Positions 9,997-18,575 of a DNA stretch of 64,000 bases are shown here, in pieces. The position numbers and the translations under genes were made by a program. Under the pieces are notes generated by a model. The model saw only the letters and a program-made list of their open reading frames with translations. It ran no database searches and was not told the DNA's origin. The stretch's first letter is position 1; each line of letters begins with the position of its first letter. Source of the stretch: Planctomycetota bacterium (GTDB lineage: Bacteria; Planctomycetota; UBA1135; UBA2386); assembly GCA_947501605.1 (NCBI GenBank), contig CANMWZ010000005.1, forward strand, positions 91,784 through 155,783, in the 5' to 3' direction.

Positions 9997-12900
9997 TCAG
10001 AAGTCGGAGCGAAGGGGGCGTTCGAGCCGCGGTGGCACAGGCTGCAGCCGTTGGCGTCGGGGGTCGCGCTGCGCAAACCAACGCTGTTCGGCTTGCACAT
10101 CACGCACGTGGCCGAACAGGTGGAAGCGCACGAGGTTGGAAGTGATCATCTGGATCACGGGCGGCAACAGCAGCATGTCGGCACCGCCGCCGAGGAAGCT
10201 GTCCGTCGTCACCGCCACGTCGAGATAGCCTTCCATCGACATTTCGCCACCGCCGCGAAGCGTGATCAATGGTGACCGCAACGCCAAGTCCGAGAGATCG
10301 ATCTTGCGATCGCGCACGTTGAACTTTGCGGTCAGGTTCTCGAACCGAGGCCGGTTTTTTTCTGCCATCAAGGCGTAGATGGCGGTGAACAGAGGGACTG
10401 TCCCTAGGTTGCCATCAGCGATGGCAAGCTCGCCGCGTCCCTTCATGTCGACGAAGTCGAAACCGTCGAGACGCTCCAGTTCGATGTGGCCGCTGGTCGT
10501 GCCATGGAACGGCGTGGTGGTGAGTCCGCAGTGCACGAGGAACTCGCGCAAACTGACGCCGGCGAAGTTGAGGCTGGCAGAGAGTTGCCCTGGGCCGCCG
10601 TTCGAGTCGCCGAAGACGTAGGTCAGCGCATCGGCTGCGGGGTCGCGTCCTTCGACGTTGCCACCGTGCAGCGAGAACTTGAGGTTCTGCAACGAGAAGT
10701 GGTCCGGCTCGACGATGAAGTCGGCGGTCGCGGTGCCAAACGGGTGGCTGAACAGCGACAGGGCGCCCTTGCTGAAGCTGCCGCGGATCGTGCCGCCGTC
10801 CTTGGTCACGCGACTCTCGGCGATCGCGAGGTTGCCGTTCACTTGTTGTAGGCGAGTGCCGAGAAGGCACTCGACGTCGAGTGCGTTGATCGAGCCTTTG
10901 AGGACCGTCTCGATGCGCTGGTCGGTGCCATCCTGGGGCAGCAGAAAGCGCAGCTGCAGGCCGTTGATGTCGATCGCGCCGCGCAGTTGCCGATCGAGCA
11001 CTGCCTGCTTCATCGGACCGACGAACAGCCGAGCAAACGTGTCGTCGAGCGGGAAACCCTGCGAACTGACGGTGAACGCGACCTCGGACCGAGCTTCCGT
11101 GGTCGACGGCCCGACATAGCCATTGGAGCAGCTCACCAGCGCCGGTCCCATGCGCGCACGCAGGTCGGAAAAACGCAGCGCCCCATCGTGTACCTGGAGC
11201 TCGCCAGTGACCTCGGTCGCGGGCAGGGGCAGCATTTCTGCTGCGGATCGCACACCGCGTAGCAGCACGTCGTACTGGCGGTCAGACTTGCCGCCGCTGG
11301 TCTTCTGGCTCAGGACGAGGTCGACGATGCCCGATGGTCGCAACACGTCCCACGTGCCTTTGCCGACGGCACCGGTCCGCTCGAGTGTGAGGCCGAGTTC
11401 CGTGTCGAGTTCCAGCCCGCGAACCACTGCGGTCAGGTCCTCGCGATAGCCGTCCTTGCCGGTGTACAGCGTGCCCACGATCGCGAGTTCCGCTGGCGTC
11501 GCTCGCTGCGCTTGGAGCAAGCCACGCACCGCGTCGATCTGCACGTGGATCTCCTCGCCGCGACCATGCACGAACACTTGACCGCTTGCCTTCGCGACCG
11601 GCAAAGGAAACGAACTGGGCAGTGCGTGACCATCGTGTAGGTCGAGCGTCAGGTCGTAGAGCAGCTCGGCCTCGGCCTTGTTGCGACGCACATGCAGCAC
11701 GGTGTCGGCGCGCCCGCTCGGTGCCAGTTCGCGCCATACGGCATCGAGCTTTGGCGCCAGCGTGGCGGTTGCCCCGCGCAGGTTCTCGTCGAGTGGGACG
11801 TTGGTGCCATCGATGCGCAGATCGATGCTGCCGAGTTCCAGTGCACCCTCTCGGTCCATCGGCGCCATGAGCTTGCCGCGCAGGTAGGCTTCACCGCCGG
11901 CGTAGCTGGCGCGGAGATCGAGCTGCAGGCCTTCCGACCGAGCGATGATGTTGCCGGTCACGTTCTCGAGTGGCAGTGGAAAACCCTGCCACCGCGCTCG
12001 CGAGCCGAGCGGCGACACAACGACCTGCCAAGTGCTCGCCTGGTCGCTTGTCGGTCGGATGCGCAGGCGAACGGACGCGGCGCCCTCTGGTGCAAACTGG
12101 TCGTACAGCGCGCCGTCGTCGCGCACGAGTTGCGCCAACGCCATCCGCAGCGCCGGCGTGAACTGAATCCGTGTAGCCTCGAGGTCGATGCTGACCTGCT
12201 CGGGGCCGGTGCTCTTGGGGTCAACGCGGCCTGAGATCGTGACTTCGCCACTGCCAGCCTCCGGAGCCAGTCGCGCGGTTACGTCTTCGATGCTGACGAC
12301 GTTGTCGCGCAGGTGCACGCGGCCCTCGGCGCCGACGACCGGCAGCGGAAATGCGGCCCGCGACTCGTCGGGGCCGAACCCGTGGTAGGACATCGCCACT
12401 CCGTGCAACTGCACATCAAGGTCTACGACCTCGTCGGAGTGGCCGTGCGCGCGCAAGTAGAGATCGAAGTCTGCGGTCCCGGCGGTTGGGCGCAGTCCAT
12501 CGACGACGCTGCGGCCGGCCTGGAACGTCCGCAGTGCGGCGCGCACTGTGTCGTCGATCTCGACGTCGCGGCCAGTGCCGCGCACTTCGAGATGCGGATC
12601 GGTGAAGAAGCCGGAGATCTTGGCCACAACCTCGGTCTGACCCGTGGGCAGGAGGCGCTGTCCGGTGAACTTCGCGGTGCCGCCGTCCTGCGTACTGATG
12701 ACTCCGCGCACCGCCGCGCTGCGCAGCGGCACTGGGATCTCTGGCAGCGAGCAAGTCATGTCGCTGAACGTGAACGAACTGCTCGCGACTGCACCATCGG
12801 CGCCGTCGAGCGGCAATTCGAGCTGTAGCACGAGTTCGTCGAGCTTGCCCGAGGCGACGTCGTCGCGCAGTTCGCTGCGCAACAGTGGTAGCAGACGCTG

Positions 12901-13590
12901 CAAGAAGGCGGCGTCGACGGTCAGGTCGGCGATGCGGGCCTGAAGTCTGACGCGCTGCTGCTGCAGGTCGACTTCACCAATCACTTCCACGTCGACTTCG
13001 AGGTTCTTGCAGTGGGCGCTGCCGTGAAGGGTGCCGCGCCGCCGATCCGGGTTCCCGTCGTCGCCGAGCACTCGCTGCAGCTGCAACTCGACGTCGATGA
13101 ACTCAAGATCCGGCACGCCATCGTCGACGCGGATCCGCGCGCTGCTGCGCGTGAGGCGCGCGGGCGTTACTTCGCCGATCCCAGCCGTGACGCCAGTTGC
13201 TGCCCGCTGCTCGCGCAGCAGTTTGGTGAGGTTTGGCGCGTGTGCCGCCGTGAGGTCGATGTCGACGCGCAGTCGGTCCATCTCGATCTCATGGAGTGCG
13301 AGCACGTTGCCCAACGGATCGGTTTCGACGCCGAGTTGCACGGACTCGGCTGCAAGCAGGTTGCGGCCTTCGCGCTGCGGATCCGCGATCGTGATGTTCG
13401 ACAGTGTCAGGCTGCCGCCGAACAGGTCCACCTGTGCGTTCTCGAGGTGGAAGCGCGTTGCCAGCAGTTGCTGCAGAAAGCTGCGTACGAGGCCCGTAGC
13501 CGCGCCGCTGCGTTGCAGCACGTACCAGGTGCCCAACATCAACGCTGCGACGATGGTCGCAGTCAGGATTGAGATGCGTCGCCAGCTCAT
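9997..13590 (-). CDS. AsmA-like envelope (putative lipid-bridge) protein
   Basis: About 1200 aa with a single N-terminal TM anchor and a long repetitive beta-rich body. AsmA-like C-terminus (KIDLSDLALRSPLITLRGGGEMSMEGYLD). Start taken at MSWRR, 13590. Confidence 0.75.
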   Translation of the reverse strand: MSWRRISILTATIVAALMLGTWYVLQRSGAATGLVRSFLQQLLATRFHLENAQVDLFGGSLTLSNITIADPQREGRNLLAAESVQLGVETDPLGNVLALHEIEMDRLRVDIDLTAAHAPNLTKLLREQRAATGVTAGIGEVTPARLTRSSARIRVDDGVPDLEFIDVELQLQRVLGDDGNPDRRRGTLHGSAHCKNLEVDVEVIGEVDLQQQRVRLQARIADLTVDAAFLQRLLPLLRSELRDDVASGKLDELVLQLELPLDGADGAVASSSFTFSDMTCSLPEIPVPLRSAAVRGVISTQDGGTAKFTGQRLLPTGQTEVVAKISGFFTDPHLEVRGTGRDVEIDDTVRAALRTFQAGRSVVDGLRPTAGTADFDLYLRAHGHSDEVVDLDVQLHGVAMSYHGFGPDESRAAFPLPVVGAEGRVHLRDNVVSIEDVTARLAPEAGSGEVTISGRVDPKSTGPEQVSIDLEATRIQFTPALRMALAQLVRDDGALYDQFAPEGAASVRLRIRPTSDQASTWQVVVSPLGSRARWQGFPLPLENVTGNIIARSEGLQLDLRASYAGGEAYLRGKLMAPMDREGALELGSIDLRIDGTNVPLDENLRGATATLAPKLDAVWRELAPSGRADTVLHVRRNKAEAELLYDLTLDLHDGHALPSSFPLPVAKASGQVFVHGRGEEIHVQIDAVRGLLQAQRATPAELAIVGTLYTGKDGYREDLTAVVRGLELDTELGLTLERTGAVGKGTWDVLRPSGIVDLVLSQKTSGGKSDRQYDVLLRGVRSAAEMLPLPATEVTGELQVHDGALRFSDLRARMGPALVSCSNGYVGPSTTEARSEVAFTVSSQGFPLDDTFARLFVGPMKQAVLDRQLRGAIDINGLQLRFLLPQDGTDQRIETVLKGSINALDVECLLGTRLQQVNGNLAIAESRVTKDGGTIRGSFSKGALSLFSHPFGTATADFIVEPDHFSLQNLKFSLHGGNVEGRDPAADALTYVFGDSNGGPGQLSASLNFAGVSLREFLVHCGLTTTPFHGTTSGHIELERLDGFDFVDMKGRGELAIADGNLGTVPLFTAIYALMAEKNRPRFENLTAKFNVRDRKIDLSDLALRSPLITLRGGGEMSMEGYLDVAVTTDSFLGGGADMLLLPPVIQMITSNLVRFHLFGHVRDVQAEQRWFAQRDPRRQRLQPVPPRLERPLRSDF

Positions 13591-13768
13591 GCGAGAGGGA
13601 ACAGTGCGTTGCGGGTCGAACGCACAGCGTTCGCAGTGAGGTTGTAGCCTGCGCGCATGGTCCTCGTCGAGGCGCAGGATCGGAGGAAGAGCACTGAGGC
13701 TTCGAATCGCAGTGCACGCGAAAACGTCGTGAACGGGCTCGGAGAGCCAGTTTCGACGCAGATTTCCT

Positions 13769-13796
13769 TTGACAGTGCGCGCGCAAAGGTCAAACT
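13769..13796 (+). promoter_or_regulatory. Putative sigma70 promoter of the histone-fold gene, overlapped by an inverted repeat
   Basis: TTGACA (13769-13774), 16 nt, CAAACT (13791-13796). TTTGAC (13768-13773) and GTCAAA (13789-13794) form an inverted repeat. Confidence 0.55.
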
Positions 13797-13865
13797 CGCG
13801 CCCCATTCAGCGTTGGGATGTTTCCACGCTGTCCGGTCAGAACCCTTTCACGAAGAGTCATTCCA

Positions 13866-14066
13866 ATGGCTGCCAAGAAGACCAAGAAGGCCGCTACCGG
13901 CGACCTCATCATCTCGAAGTCGCGCACCAAGGCCGCGGTCAAGAAGTGCAACGTCTCGTCGGACTTCTATCCGGCGCTCGACAAGGCCGTCCGCTCGCTG
14001 ATTCAGATTGCTGAGTCGCGTGCGACCGGCAACAAGCGCAAGACGCTCCGCCCGCAGGATCTGTGA
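13866..14066 (+). CDS. Bacterial histone-fold protein (short-alpha3 type) with a Lys-rich N-terminal extension
   Basis: 66 aa, MAAKKTKKAATGDLIISKSRTKAAVKKCNVSSDFYPALDKAVRSLIQIAESRATGNKRKTLRPQDL. Helix-loop-long helix-loop-short helix layout ending in RKTxxxxD. 16 K+R versus 5 D+E. Confidence 0.88.
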   Translation: MAAKKTKKAATGDLIISKSRTKAAVKKCNVSSDFYPALDKAVRSLIQIAESRATGNKRKTLRPQDL

Positions 14067-14111: not shown

Positions 14112-14146
14112 GAGAGGTCGGCCTGCTCACGCGGGCCGATTCTCTG
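14112..14146 (+). terminator. Hairpin downstream of the histone-fold gene (probable terminator)
   Basis: GGTCGGCCTGC-TCAC-GCGGGCCGATT 11-bp stem including G-U pairs, followed by CTCTGT. It lies between convergent genes. Confidence 0.55.
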
Positions 14147-15032: not shown

Positions 15033-16385
15033 TCAGCCGAGCAATTCTGCGACGAGGTCGGCGAGTTCGCGACACAGGCGCTCGACGAGTTCGCCGTCGG
15101 CGGCCTCGATCATCACGCGGCAGAGCGGTTCGGTGCCCGAGTAGCGCAACAGGAGGCGGCCGTCATTGCCCAGGATGCGCTCGACCTCTGCCATGCGGGC
15201 AGCGAGAGCGGGGACCTCGGCGAACTTCGGCTTCTTGCTGACCGGCACGTTGATGAGCTTCTGCGGAAAGCGGCGGAATGAGGCAAAGGCGGCCGCCAGC
15301 CCGCGTTCCCGAACGCCCGGCAGCGACAACAGCCGCAGCGCCGTGAACACGCCATCGCCCGTCAGTTTGCCATCGCCGGCGAAGAGGATGTGACCCGATT
15401 GCTCGCCGCCGAGCGCAAGACCGCGTTCGCGCATCGCTTGCACGACATTGCGGTCGCCGACGGGGGTCACATGGACCTTGATGCCGGCGCTGCTGAGGGC
15501 GCGGTGAAGCCCGAGGTTGCTCATCACCGTCGCGGCCACGGTGGCGTGCGGGAGGTCGCCGTTCTGGTGCATGTGCATGCCGAACAGGCACAACTGATCG
15601 TCGCCGTCGCGGACGGTGCCGGTCTCGTCGACGAAGATGCCGCGATCGCCATCGCCGTCGAGGCAGATGCCGAGGTGGGCCCCGTGTTCGCGCACCGCAT
15701 TGCGCACGAACTCGGGGTGAAGCGCGCCGACACCATCGTTGATGTTGAAGCCGTCGGGCTCGCACGCGACTTCGATGACCTCGGCGCCAAATGCGCGCAG
15801 GATGGTCGGCGCCAGCCCGGATCCGCCGCCGTGCGCTGCGTCCACGCACAGCTTCATGCCGGTGAGGTCCAGCGTCGGGTAGAGCTCGGCAAATTGGTCT
15901 TCGTAGGAGCGCAGCAGGTCGTGGCGCGGGCGCAAGCGCGGCGTGCCCGTCCGTTCGGGGCGCAACTCGCAGCTCAGCGATTCGAGTTCGCGCTCCTCAG
16001 CGTCGGCCAGTTTCGTGCCATCGTGGGAGAAGATCTTGATGCCGTTGTCGTGCGCGGGGTTGTGCGACGCGCTGATCATGATGCCGGCCGAGAACGGCTG
16101 CGTGCGGCAGAGGAAGGCCAGGGCCGGCGTGGTGCACAGACCGACGTCGGTCACGGCGACCTCGGCGGCGACGAGTCCTTGGGCGAGTGCCTCCAGGATC
16201 CACGGAGCCGACTCGCGCCCGTCATTGCCGCTGACGACGCGGATGGGGTCGATGCCTGTCTTCTGGAGCAGAACTCCGAGTGCGGCGCCGACTCGGCGCA
16301 TGGTCTCGGGGTCGAGTGGTGCTTCGCCGGCGCGGCCGCGCAGGCCATCGGTACCGAACTGGGGGGGCTGGAACGACTCGCTCAT
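15033..16385 (-). CDS. glmM: Phosphoglucosamine mutase
   Basis: FGTDGLRG, ISASHNP (phosphoserine loop), DGDGDR, VMSNLGL, GGEQSGH and LRYSGTEP motifs. The ATG overlaps the cdaA stop (ATGA). Confidence 0.95.
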   Translation of the reverse strand: MSESFQPPQFGTDGLRGRAGEAPLDPETMRRVGAALGVLLQKTGIDPIRVVSGNDGRESAPWILEALAQGLVAAEVAVTDVGLCTTPALAFLCRTQPFSAGIMISASHNPAHDNGIKIFSHDGTKLADAEERELESLSCELRPERTGTPRLRPRHDLLRSYEDQFAELYPTLDLTGMKLCVDAAHGGGSGLAPTILRAFGAEVIEVACEPDGFNINDGVGALHPEFVRNAVREHGAHLGICLDGDGDRGIFVDETGTVRDGDDQLCLFGMHMHQNGDLPHATVAATVMSNLGLHRALSSAGIKVHVTPVGDRNVVQAMRERGLALGGEQSGHILFAGDGKLTGDGVFTALRLLSLPGVRERGLAAAFASFRRFPQKLINVPVSKKPKFAEVPALAARMAEVERILGNDGRLLLRYSGTEPLCRVMIEAADGELVERLCRELADLVAELLG

Positions 16386-18307
16386 GGTGTTCGGATCAGT
16401 TCGACGGTGACCAGCTCCTCGAGCCCGAAGTCGGCAGCGTTGTCCCCGTCGCGAACCGAGTCGACCAAGTAGAGCCGCGCCCGAGCGAGGATCTTCTCGG
16501 GGTAGGAACTCTCGTCTTCGCGCGGCGGGATCCAGACCAACAGGCGAAGGTTGGCGCGGGCCCATTCGGCACGCGGGCCGGGCTCGAAGCCGACGAGCTT
16601 CGACAGCAGCGCGCCACCGGCTTTGATGCGGACAGCCTTGGTCGGCGTATCGGGTCGATACTGGTTTCGCAGCTCGGGCGGCAGGGCTAGGTCGTCGACC
16701 AACACCGGCAGATCGAAGCTGTAGCCCTGCATCTCGGGCCGCAACTGCACGGTCAGCGAGCAGCGTTCGCGCAGGCGGAGACCGAGTTCTTCGAACTGGG
16801 GTTGCAGCGTGATCTGAGCCGGGATCTGGCGCGCACTCGACGGCGCCGCGAGCTGGGCGCGCATGGGGCGTTCGCCTTTGCGGGCGGCCAACTCCTCGTG
16901 GGCCCGGGCCGGTCCGAACAACTCGACGGTCTTCGGCGTGAACTCGAAGGTGTCATCGCGCAGGCGTGCCCGCAGCCGCTCGTCGCCGTTGAACATCAGC
17001 TCGATCTGGTCGGCTCCGAGCTGGAGCGTTGTGACCTTGACGCGCACCACTTGGATACTCACGCGCGGTGGATCCATGACGATGGCGATCTTGCCGTCGA
17101 CCAGGGCTCGGTGGGACGGCTGAATGTCGGTGGCCGTGAACCCCGCCCTGTCGACCTTGTCCCACTCGACCTGCGGCAGCTTGACGCTGAGCTTCAGGCT
17201 GTCGCCATAGAGGTTCTCGATCGAGGTCTTCGGTCCCTCGAACGTCAACTTCACCGCGTCGATCGGCTCGCCGGTGCTGAGGTCGACGAACCCGGTGTGC
17301 GTCACCGTGTCGGTTGGGATGTTCACGAACAGTTCGTCGATGCCGGCGAGCTGAGGGAGCTGCTGGCCGATGCCGATCACGTCGAGTTTCATGGCGACGG
17401 TGTGCGACGCCGTGATGCGCTGGTCCATGGCCAGCCACAGCAAGATGGCGAGCCCGACGGCGGACAGCTTGCGCCACGGGTCGGCAGTGACCATCTGGCC
17501 CAGTGTGGTCACGATCGGGCGGCGCTGGGCAGCGCGCTCCCGGCGCTTCTGCGTGTTGAGCACGTCCTCCAGCTGTTTCTCGAGCGTCTCTTTGGTGATG
17601 GCGTAGCTGAGCTTGCCAGCGAGCGCGGTCGAGATCGTGCCGGTCTCTTCGGAGACGACGACGGCGAGTGCATCGGTTTCTTCGGACAGACCCAATGCCG
17701 CCCGGTGGCGCGTGCCAAGGCGCTTGTCCACCTCGGGGTTCTGACTCAAGGGCAGCAGGCAAGCCGCGGCGACCACTCGATTGTCGCGCAGGATCACTGC
17801 GCCGTCGTGCAGCGTGCTCTTGGGGTAGAAGAGCGATTCGAGCAACAGCGGTGAGAGTTCGGCGTCGAGATGGGTGCCGGAGTCCGCAATCGACTGCAGG
17901 GAGGCGTCGCGCTCGATGGCGATCAGCGCGCCCATCTTGACCTTGCTCATGCTCTCAACGGCTCGCGACACCCGCTGGATGATCTTGGTCTCCTTGCGAA
18001 AGAGCCGGGCGAACACCTTCGATTCGCCGATGTGCACGATCGCCCGGCGCATCTCTGGGTGGAACACCACGATCAATGCAATGACCACGGACTGCACGAT
18101 CATCTCGAACAGCTGCTTCAGCCGGTCCAGACCCATGAACTGGATCAAGAACAGGAACGATGCGACCCCGGCGACGCCGAGATACGCGAGGCCGCGGAGC
18201 ACGTTGCTGCCGCGCGTTCGGCGCAGGAACCGCAGGCCGAAGTAGATCAGGGCGGCGAAGATCGCCACCTCGATCATCCGCTTCGATAGCTCCGCGAAGT
18301 CCGCCAT
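16382..18307 (-). CDS. cdaA: Diadenylate cyclase CdaA fused to a TM helix and a CdaR/YbbR-like extracytoplasmic region
   Basis: Three N-terminal TMs, VVFHPEMRR, GALIAIER, LHDGAV, LGTRHRAALGLSEETDA and VSEETG. Then KLSAVGLAILLWLAM (CdaR-type anchor) and beta-rich repeats (VKLTFEGP, PKTVELFGP, KAVRIKA). Start is 18307 or 18322. Confidence 0.9.
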   Translation of the reverse strand: MADFAELSKRMIEVAIFAALIYFGLRFLRRTRGSNVLRGLAYLGVAGVASFLFLIQFMGLDRLKQLFEMIVQSVVIALIVVFHPEMRRAIVHIGESKVFARLFRKETKIIQRVSRAVESMSKVKMGALIAIERDASLQSIADSGTHLDAELSPLLLESLFYPKSTLHDGAVILRDNRVVAAACLLPLSQNPEVDKRLGTRHRAALGLSEETDALAVVVSEETGTISTALAGKLSYAITKETLEKQLEDVLNTQKRRERAAQRRPIVTTLGQMVTADPWRKLSAVGLAILLWLAMDQRITASHTVAMKLDVIGIGQQLPQLAGIDELFVNIPTDTVTHTGFVDLSTGEPIDAVKLTFEGPKTSIENLYGDSLKLSVKLPQVEWDKVDRAGFTATDIQPSHRALVDGKIAIVMDPPRVSIQVVRVKVTTLQLGADQIELMFNGDERLRARLRDDTFEFTPKTVELFGPARAHEELAARKGERPMRAQLAAPSSARQIPAQITLQPQFEELGLRLRERCSLTVQLRPEMQGYSFDLPVLVDDLALPPELRNQYRPDTPTKAVRIKAGGALLSKLVGFEPGPRAEWARANLRLLVWIPPREDESSYPEKILARARLYLVDSVRDGDNAADFGLEELVTVELIRTP

Positions 18308-18575
18308 TGCAATGCGCAGCATCCATAGCGGCGTGGCAGCGCTGATGCCACAGCCGAACCTCGTCGATGCGTGTCTAGAAGTGGTTTCCTAGCCCGCTAG
18401 CGCTTCCCGAAGGCCCCGTCGATCGATGCCGGCGTCGCGAACTCGCCGCCCAATCACCAGGTTGCGCTGCGAGTCCGACTCTCGCCCTCGGCTGCCGTGG
18501 CTTGGCCGCGCGCGCTCGACCTTGGTGCCACGACAGAGTGCCGCGGACCGTCGCGGTTGCGCCGGCCCGCCGCGG

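Follow-up and report, generated by a model that had tools for sequence, protein, structure and literature searches.

The short gene at 13866..14066 on the forward strand of the window, the analysed 64,000-nucleotide stretch of a contig in the Planctomycetota MAG of an uncultured freshwater planctomycete, encodes a face-to-face (FtF) alpha3-truncated bacterial histone. A literature search found no bench work on planctomycetal FtF histones and, to our knowledge, the only bacterial histones that have been studied at the bench are Bd0055/HBb and the FtF histones of Leptospira. The protein is an uncharacterised member of a published family, whose type, phyla and tails were described in 2024-2025: what defines an FtF histone is its tetramer (Schwab et al., 2024, PMC11390915), and FtF histones with positively charged tails are in print for Planctomycetota (PMC11390915; PMC12701072). 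It is very probable that the planctomycete protein is a nucleoid-associated histone of this type, with a tetramer that would wrap DNA, a tail that would add a non-specific grip, and a gene that would act as a stand-alone unit beside HU/IHF. The features of the gene and its surroundings are as follows.

13769..13796 (+): putative sigma-70-type promoter, with TTGACA at 13769-13774, a 16-nt spacer and CAAACT at 13791-13796
13852..13857 (+): GAAGAG resembling a Shine-Dalgarno sequence, 8 nt ahead of the ATG; a weak feature
13866..14066 (+): FtF histone gene, 66 codons and TGA, resting on the ORF list, AF2, Foldseek, the family profile and 2159 homologs
13866..13901 (+): codons of residues 1-12, predicted disordered Lys/Ala tail
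Residues 13-66: alpha3-truncated histone fold, with alpha1 at 18-24, L1 at 25-33, alpha2 at 34-55, L2 at 56-62 and a one-turn alpha3 at 63-65 (AF2)
14019..14063 (+): codons of R52, N56, R58, K59, T60, D65 and L66, which form the RD clamp (RxTxxxxD) and the predicted FtF dimer-dimer interface
14114..14144 (+): GC-rich hairpin, 48 nt past the stop and followed by a U-poor UGUAC (RNA fold)
9997..13806 (-): gene of a 1269-aa protein with a DUF748 match (E 8.7e-10, 37.7 bits, under the Pfam cut-off of 50)
15033..18322 (-): c-di-AMP module, in which a 646-aa protein carries a diadenylate cyclase (DAC) domain at residues 120-237, followed by a long C-terminal extension

Translation of the gene gives the composition that the first-pass annotation had claimed, with 11 Lys, 5 Arg and five acidic residues (4 Asp, 1 Glu) in 66 amino acids, and yields a protein of 7.19 kDa with a pI of 10.5 and a net charge of about +11. 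The R58-x-T60-x4-D65 signature (RxTxxxxD, the R-D clamp in L2-alpha3) is present, and so is the 13-residue lead that precedes the fold, MAAKKTKKAATGD. The same annotation had drawn attention to the Lys codons, all of which are indeed AAG (11/11), but this is unremarkable, since AAG accounts for 64/77 Lys codons in five neighbouring genes (P = 0.13 for 11/11), and the background usage thus rules it out as a sign of special expression. An in-frame ATG at 13818, upstream of 13866, would yield a protein of 82 aa. Loci of the same genus lack a Met in the upstream frame, where their sequence also differs, while the proteins all start with MAAKK or MAKK; therefore 13866 is the right start, and from this comparison 13818 is unlikely to be the true start of the ORF.

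The histone protein has no match in Pfam at E <= 10, and its sole match in NCBIfam is FabI at E 0.085, which is chance level, so that no histone model is matched and the assignment rests on the comparison of profiles and structures. A phmmer search of the PDB matched only two chains, 9f2c of HTkC (E 0.0017) and 9qt0 of HLp (E 0.0038). Homologs are numerous, with 2159 of 2162 candidates (36-116 aa) matching at E <= 0.01 and 138 cluster representatives (50% identity) matching at E <= 0.001, and the source databases label them either “histone H3/H4” or “DUF1931 domain-containing protein.” The latter label is loose: the Pfam DUF1931 family (PF09123) is pseudodimeric, while the present protein is a single fold of 66 aa without a Pfam match at E <= 10, and PF09123 has no match in the genome that carries it. 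Among the relatives there are tandem doublets of ~117-130 aa, in which both halves end in the FtF-type ...N.R.T....D, making them fused FtF pseudodimers that are distinct from those of Pfam DUF1931 (P0147, P0159, P0165, P0171, P0178, P0181, P0189, and further P0190, P0208, P0217, P0225, P0226, P0229, P0238). A nucleosomal histone (PF00808, PF00125) was rejected on the same lack of a Pfam match and on the AF2 model, in which alpha3 amounts to one turn; at another place in the genome PF00808 matches L005 weakly, but this is a Clp_N-type protein and no histone.

Within the histones, the order of the matches places the protein in the FtF class. A family profile of 78 members matches HTkC (9F2C) at E 2.6e-16 and HLp (9QT0) at E 1.4e-13, followed by HBb/Bd0055 at E 3.4e-9 (8cmp) and 1e-8 (8fvx), HmvA at E 4.6e-5 and HMfA at E 0.28, such that the FtF members are closer to the protein than HBb or HMfA. 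The 78 members were chosen among 187 sequences ending in R.T....D, and the invariance of R58, T60 and D65 is thus partly due to selection; R52, N56 and A49 are invariant in 78/78 aligned homologs, though they lie outside the selection criterion. Furthermore, 225/257 proteins examined show the complete spacing R-x3-N-x-R-x-T-x4-D, which R52 and N56 fit exactly, and in most of the other 32/257 the C-terminal end is truncated or unrelated. This spacing is that of the FtF HMM logo, in which R48, N52, R54, T56 and D61 are described as most conserved (PMC11390915) and correspond to R52, N56, R58, T60 and D65. In the HMMER alignment, R52, N56, R58 and D65 map to R49, N53, R55 and D62 of HLp, and T60 maps to T57.

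These residues bear on the question whether the protein could instead be one of the “bacterial dimer” histones, like HBb/Bd0055, and would stay a dimer and bend or coat DNA, with no wrapping by a tetramer. The family profile also matches HBb, as given above, the AF2 model can be superposed on HBb with a TM of 0.75-0.78, and the RKT triplet described for bacterial dimers is present; moreover, such dimers also occur in Planctomycetota (PMC11390915). However, the FtF structures score better by 5-7 orders of magnitude, and according to the published description R48 and N52 link both FtF dimers, while the bacterial dimers are without this joining R and N (PMC11390915), whose counterparts R52 and N56 are invariant here. 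Since the dimer-dimer interface is also predicted through exactly these residues (see below), a histone that remains dimeric is very unlikely. The FtF class, which had been preferred over the Bd0055 class from the letters of the gene, is therefore supported by the profile E-values, by R52 and N56, by Foldseek and by the interface in the ESMFold2 model.

The AF2 monomer has a pLDDT of 81; its two helices span residues 18-24 and 34-55, residues 63-65 make a helical turn, and the model agrees within a few residues with the layout of helix, loop, long helix, loop and short end that had been read from the sequence; residues 1-10 have a mean pLDDT of 49. Foldseek places HLp first (9qt1/9qt0, target TM 0.85-0.86, rmsd 1.2-1.3 Å, 36% identity), with HTkC ranking next, HBb below it and NF-Y and nucleosomal histones far behind, and the best nine matches are all prokaryotic alpha3 histones, with E-values no better than ~3e-3 owing to the short chain. 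With four copies, ESMFold2 returns a score of 0.88, as opposed to 0.01 for the best of three controls, a mark that was reached by 20/30 proteins solved as pairs and by 1/23 solved as single chains; contact agreement in the four-copy runs is at least 89% and the partner pLDDT at least 84. In this model the scored chain and its dimer mate form a full handshake along alpha1, alpha2 and L1-L2, with an antiparallel alpha2-alpha2 packing, so that both the predicted histone fold and the predicted handshake dimer agree with the bacterial histone that the first-pass annotation had proposed, as do the profile and the 2159 homologs. The contact between the dimers is small and runs from residues 51-52, 55-56, 58 and 64-65 to one chain of the other dimer, these residues being the counterparts of HLp R49, S52, N53, R55 and T61-F63. 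One chain was scored and hence one inter-dimer interface, which leaves ring closure outside the view of the model. As like complexes have been solved (9QT0, 9F2C), the tetramer prediction indicates likeness and may echo these structures.

In the HLp tetramer, R49, S52 and N53 of one chain are reported to lie against F63, T61 and R55 of the other, with an RD clamp between R55 and D62 (PMC12701072). The residues R49, S52, N53, F63, T61 and R55 align to R52, G55, N56, L66, Q64 and R58 of the planctomycete protein. By this likeness, two chains would pair into a classic handshake dimer, and two dimers would then join into a closed tetramer via the C-terminus of alpha2 together with L2 and the single turn of alpha3 (R52, N56, R58, Q64-L66). 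About 60 bp of DNA have been reported to wrap around the HLp tetramer (Hu et al., 2025, PMC12701072), and by analogy ~60 bp would wrap non-specifically around the basic rim of the planctomycete tetramer, with contacts that may be made by the N-terminus of alpha1 (K18-R20), by K22 and K26, and by the L1/L2 bridge (K59, T60). The DNA-contacting residues of HLp, A13, S14, K15, K17, K21, T56 and T57, align to K18, S19, R20, K22, K26, K59 and T60, which means that at the level of the alignment these positions are retained or more basic. From the conserved contact residues we infer, by analogy with HLp, that the planctomycete histone wraps DNA, and its form is probably a four-subunit ring wrapped by DNA, as judged from the model and from the solved relatives; the cellular abundance of the protein and the role of its tail, taken up below, are likewise inferred.

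Some histone folds are described as never touching DNA (PMC10627809), and such a fold could serve a role without DNA, for example as a scaffold between proteins as in TFIID or CENP-TSWX. Against a scaffold speak the net charge of about +11 and the pI of 10.5, the retained or more basic residues at the HLp contact positions, and the genetic setting, a stand-alone single gene without partners, which together make this role extremely unlikely.

The lysine-rich tail, which the first-pass annotation had placed before the fold, is genuine and the start at 13866 upheld, as judged from the homologs. Residues 1-12 contain four Lys (K4, K5, K7, K8) and have a net charge of +3 when D13 is counted. For comparison, 78 distinct proteins from related loci were surveyed, each read from whichever Met lies closest to the fold and thus with the shortest possible tail, and the counts cover the 74 that have such a Met, the other four loci being cut or starting otherwise. 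The minimum tail length ranges from 2 to 34 residues with a median of 15, the median number of Lys and Arg is five, the net charge is at least +3 in 67/74 homologs, and 66/74 start with MA[AKR][KRA]. Beyond these first residues the tail sequence is unconserved among the 74 homologs, and a one-codon indel is found within the genus (MAAKKTKK versus MAAKKTTKK). The comparison thus indicates that the tail is translated and is conserved in charge, composition and first residues, without conserved length. In some homologs, tails of AKK or ATKK repeats are very long, reaching at least 32-34 residues and carrying as many as 18 Lys and Arg (L079, L086, L090; P0137, P0143, P0242), and tailless homologs of 55-58 aa exist as well (e.g. 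P0154, P0205).

Since the charge is kept while the length and the later positions drift, a non-specific DNA-binding arm fits better than a site-specific code, and the four disordered Lys/Ala tails of a tetramer would most likely add a non-specific electrostatic grip on DNA. The first-pass annotation had gone further and compared the tail to a modifiable eukaryote-like histone tail, in which lysines would be acetylated or methylated to tune chromatin. The tail is indeed predicted to be disordered, is basic and is conserved in kind, 66/74 homologs share the start given above, and Schwab et al. name such tails H3-like (PMC11390915). The drift in length and sequence, from 2 to 34 residues and with an indel within the genus, nevertheless favours selection for charge, and the account of Schwab et al. 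describes no conserved tail sequence (PMC11390915). Moreover, no acetyl- or methyltransferase, deacetylase or reader gene adjoins the histone gene, and a search of the genome gave no ZZ histone, a ZZ match (L093, E 0.2) being at chance level. The alanine at position 2 and the early lysines may instead reflect removal of Met and efficient translation. No account of a modified tail on a bacterial histone came up in a literature search. Regulation of the tail, a claim of the earlier annotation that found no support, is thus unlikely. A bolder variant, in which the tailed FtF histone would act as a major chromatin protein and form tetrameric “mini-nucleosomes,” with the AAKK N-terminus exposed after Met removal being acetylated or methylated to tune wrapping or bridging, is very unlikely; if true, it would give uncultured freshwater Planctomycetota a bacterial counterpart of histone-tail control, alongside HU. 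Because the fold stays almost the same while the tail varies from absent to over 30 residues, the homologs offer a natural series for probing the tails of bacterial histones.

The gene appears from cross-locus comparison to be monocistronic, a stand-alone transcription unit with a conserved promoter and terminator. Upstream, TTGACA is invariant in 10/10 aligned loci from several genera and CAAACT is identical in 9/10, while the spacer varies freely, which is the signature of a promoter. The weak GAAGAG before the start is kept in four of five aligned loci from the same genus or family (L007-L009, L011), L010 having TGAGAG, and is missing from L018-L020 and L025. Downstream, the hairpin at 14114..14144 is likely an intrinsic terminator; its U-tract is weak in the window, and in relatives the hairpin at this position precedes T runs that are clearer. 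A consensus promoter and terminator scan listed neither the promoter at 13769..13796 nor the hairpin, and both calls rest on conservation across loci and on folding.

Parts of the window are contained in 19 RNA runs from 12 studies, and in three of the four runs examined (four studies) there are short contigs restricted to the histone gene. In X5 a contig covering 13898-14180 has a depth of 33.7, compared with 6.7 for a neighbouring contig, and the contigs of X12 and X6 cover 13820-14052 and 13864-14056, respectively, while in X1 the flanks of the gene are covered too. These contigs from RNA libraries hint at expression of the histone and are no proof of transcription; window parts without RNA-contig cover are likewise no sign of silence. 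In the X12 metatranscriptome contig one base is missing at 13863 in the 5′ leader, matching the leader length in the same genus, and three base differences occur at 14015-14024 in the X6 and X12 contigs, so that related strains are indicated in those samples.

The assembly that carries the gene comprises 4.65 Mb in 89 contigs and is 91% complete; its nearest records are Planctomycetota MAGs with 86-97% identity, and the 80 related loci are all from MAG records. The histone is single copy in this genome, a second-copy candidate (L092, profile E 0.32) being at chance level, and is found in 34/41 relatives with one match each and in 23/24 sampled genomes of its own family, several complete genomes being among the family members that matched. 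Throughout the phylum it occurs in 89/201 genomes that are at least 80% complete, all-or-none by family, in a survey whose profile may also pick up bacterial-dimer histones at its weak end. The gene is flanked by the divergent gene of the 1269-aa DUF748 protein and by a convergent tsaB-glmM-cdaA group. The DUF748 gene lies upstream in 24/80 loci, down to ~34% identity, and when five neighbours from the window were compared with the 80 loci by tblastn, glmM (16), cdaA (12) and tsaB (11) lay downstream, neighbours whose sharing across loci indicates that the histone locus is old and vertically kept within the phylum. No functional link between the DUF748 gene and the histone is evident. Within the c-di-AMP module, the gene of the 646-aa DAC protein lies directly upstream of glmM (phosphoglucosamine mutase), and this cdaA-glmM pairing, which is best known from Firmicutes, stands downstream of the histone in 12-16 of the 80 related loci.

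The fold is also 70-85% identical across loci L017-L091, which come from MAGs of differing phylum labels (Planctomycetota, Myxococcota/“Deltaproteobacteria,” Eisenbacteria, Acidobacteriota, Spirochaetales, Methylomirabilota, Verrucomicrobiota and “Glaciecola”). This identity may reflect constraint, transfer or mis-binning, between which 53 aligned residues are too few to separate. The genome further encodes three HU/IHF-family proteins (PF00216) over the Pfam cut-off, at C2:250524-250793, C1:261547-261813 and C14:25903-26154, and the histone is thus not the only nucleoid protein and, in contrast to Leptospira, need not be the main organiser of the DNA. Its gene would work as its own transcription unit, coexisting with these three.

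Bacterial histones are a young field, and the planctomycete histone leaves unchanged the picture drawn by Schwab et al. (2024) and Hu et al. (2025). To this picture it contributes an FtF type that is a stable, vertically kept, single-copy gene across a Planctomycetota family (23/24 sampled genomes), that has strong and conserved expression signals, and that sits alongside HU/IHF genes without replacing them.

Among the known systems, HLp of L. perolatii (9QT0, 9QT1, 9QT2) is like the planctomycete histone in its alpha3-truncated fold, its length class (63 residues; PDB chain 65) and its short disordered N-terminal lead, and HLp R49, N53 and R55 with the clamp R55-D62 are equivalent to R52, N56 and R58 with the clamp R58-D65. 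The two differ in phylum, in the tail, which is richer in Lys in the planctomycete (four Lys in 12 residues), and in the additional basic residues at contact positions (K18, R20, K59). Their neighbours differ as well, the planctomycete gene lying beside DUF748 and tsaB-glmM-cdaA and that of HLp beside SMC, MAP and DUF350. The planctomycete host has three HU/IHF genes, whereas HU/IHF is reported absent from L. perolatii, and L. interrogans also differs from the present genome (PMC12701072). HTkC of Thermococcus kodakarensis (9F2C), which the profile matches best, has the same fold and a torus-shaped tetramer, but it is archaeal and tailless, has a Glu at the N56 position and coexists with nucleosomal histones. 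HBb/Bd0055 of Bdellovibrio bacteriovorus (8CMP, 8FVX, 9EZZ) shares the truncated alpha3, the RKT...D pattern and the handshake dimer; unlike the planctomycete histone, it bends or coats DNA as a dimer, and it is the weaker match (3e-9 versus 1e-13 to 1e-16). The archaeal nucleosomal histones HMfA/HMfB (PF00808) have the histone fold and the RxTxxxxD signature or RD clamp in common with the planctomycete histone, but their alpha3 is full-length and they build hypernucleosomes through a single four-helix-bundle interface. Low-complexity, Lys/Ala-rich basic segments of the AKK type are also known from the C-terminus of mycobacterial HupB, the N-terminus of Deinococcus HU and chlamydial Hc1, where they probably give a small DNA-binding fold additional non-specific affinity for DNA. 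The resemblance of these extensions to the histone tail is one of composition only; they are carried by HU or H1-like folds and by no histone fold.
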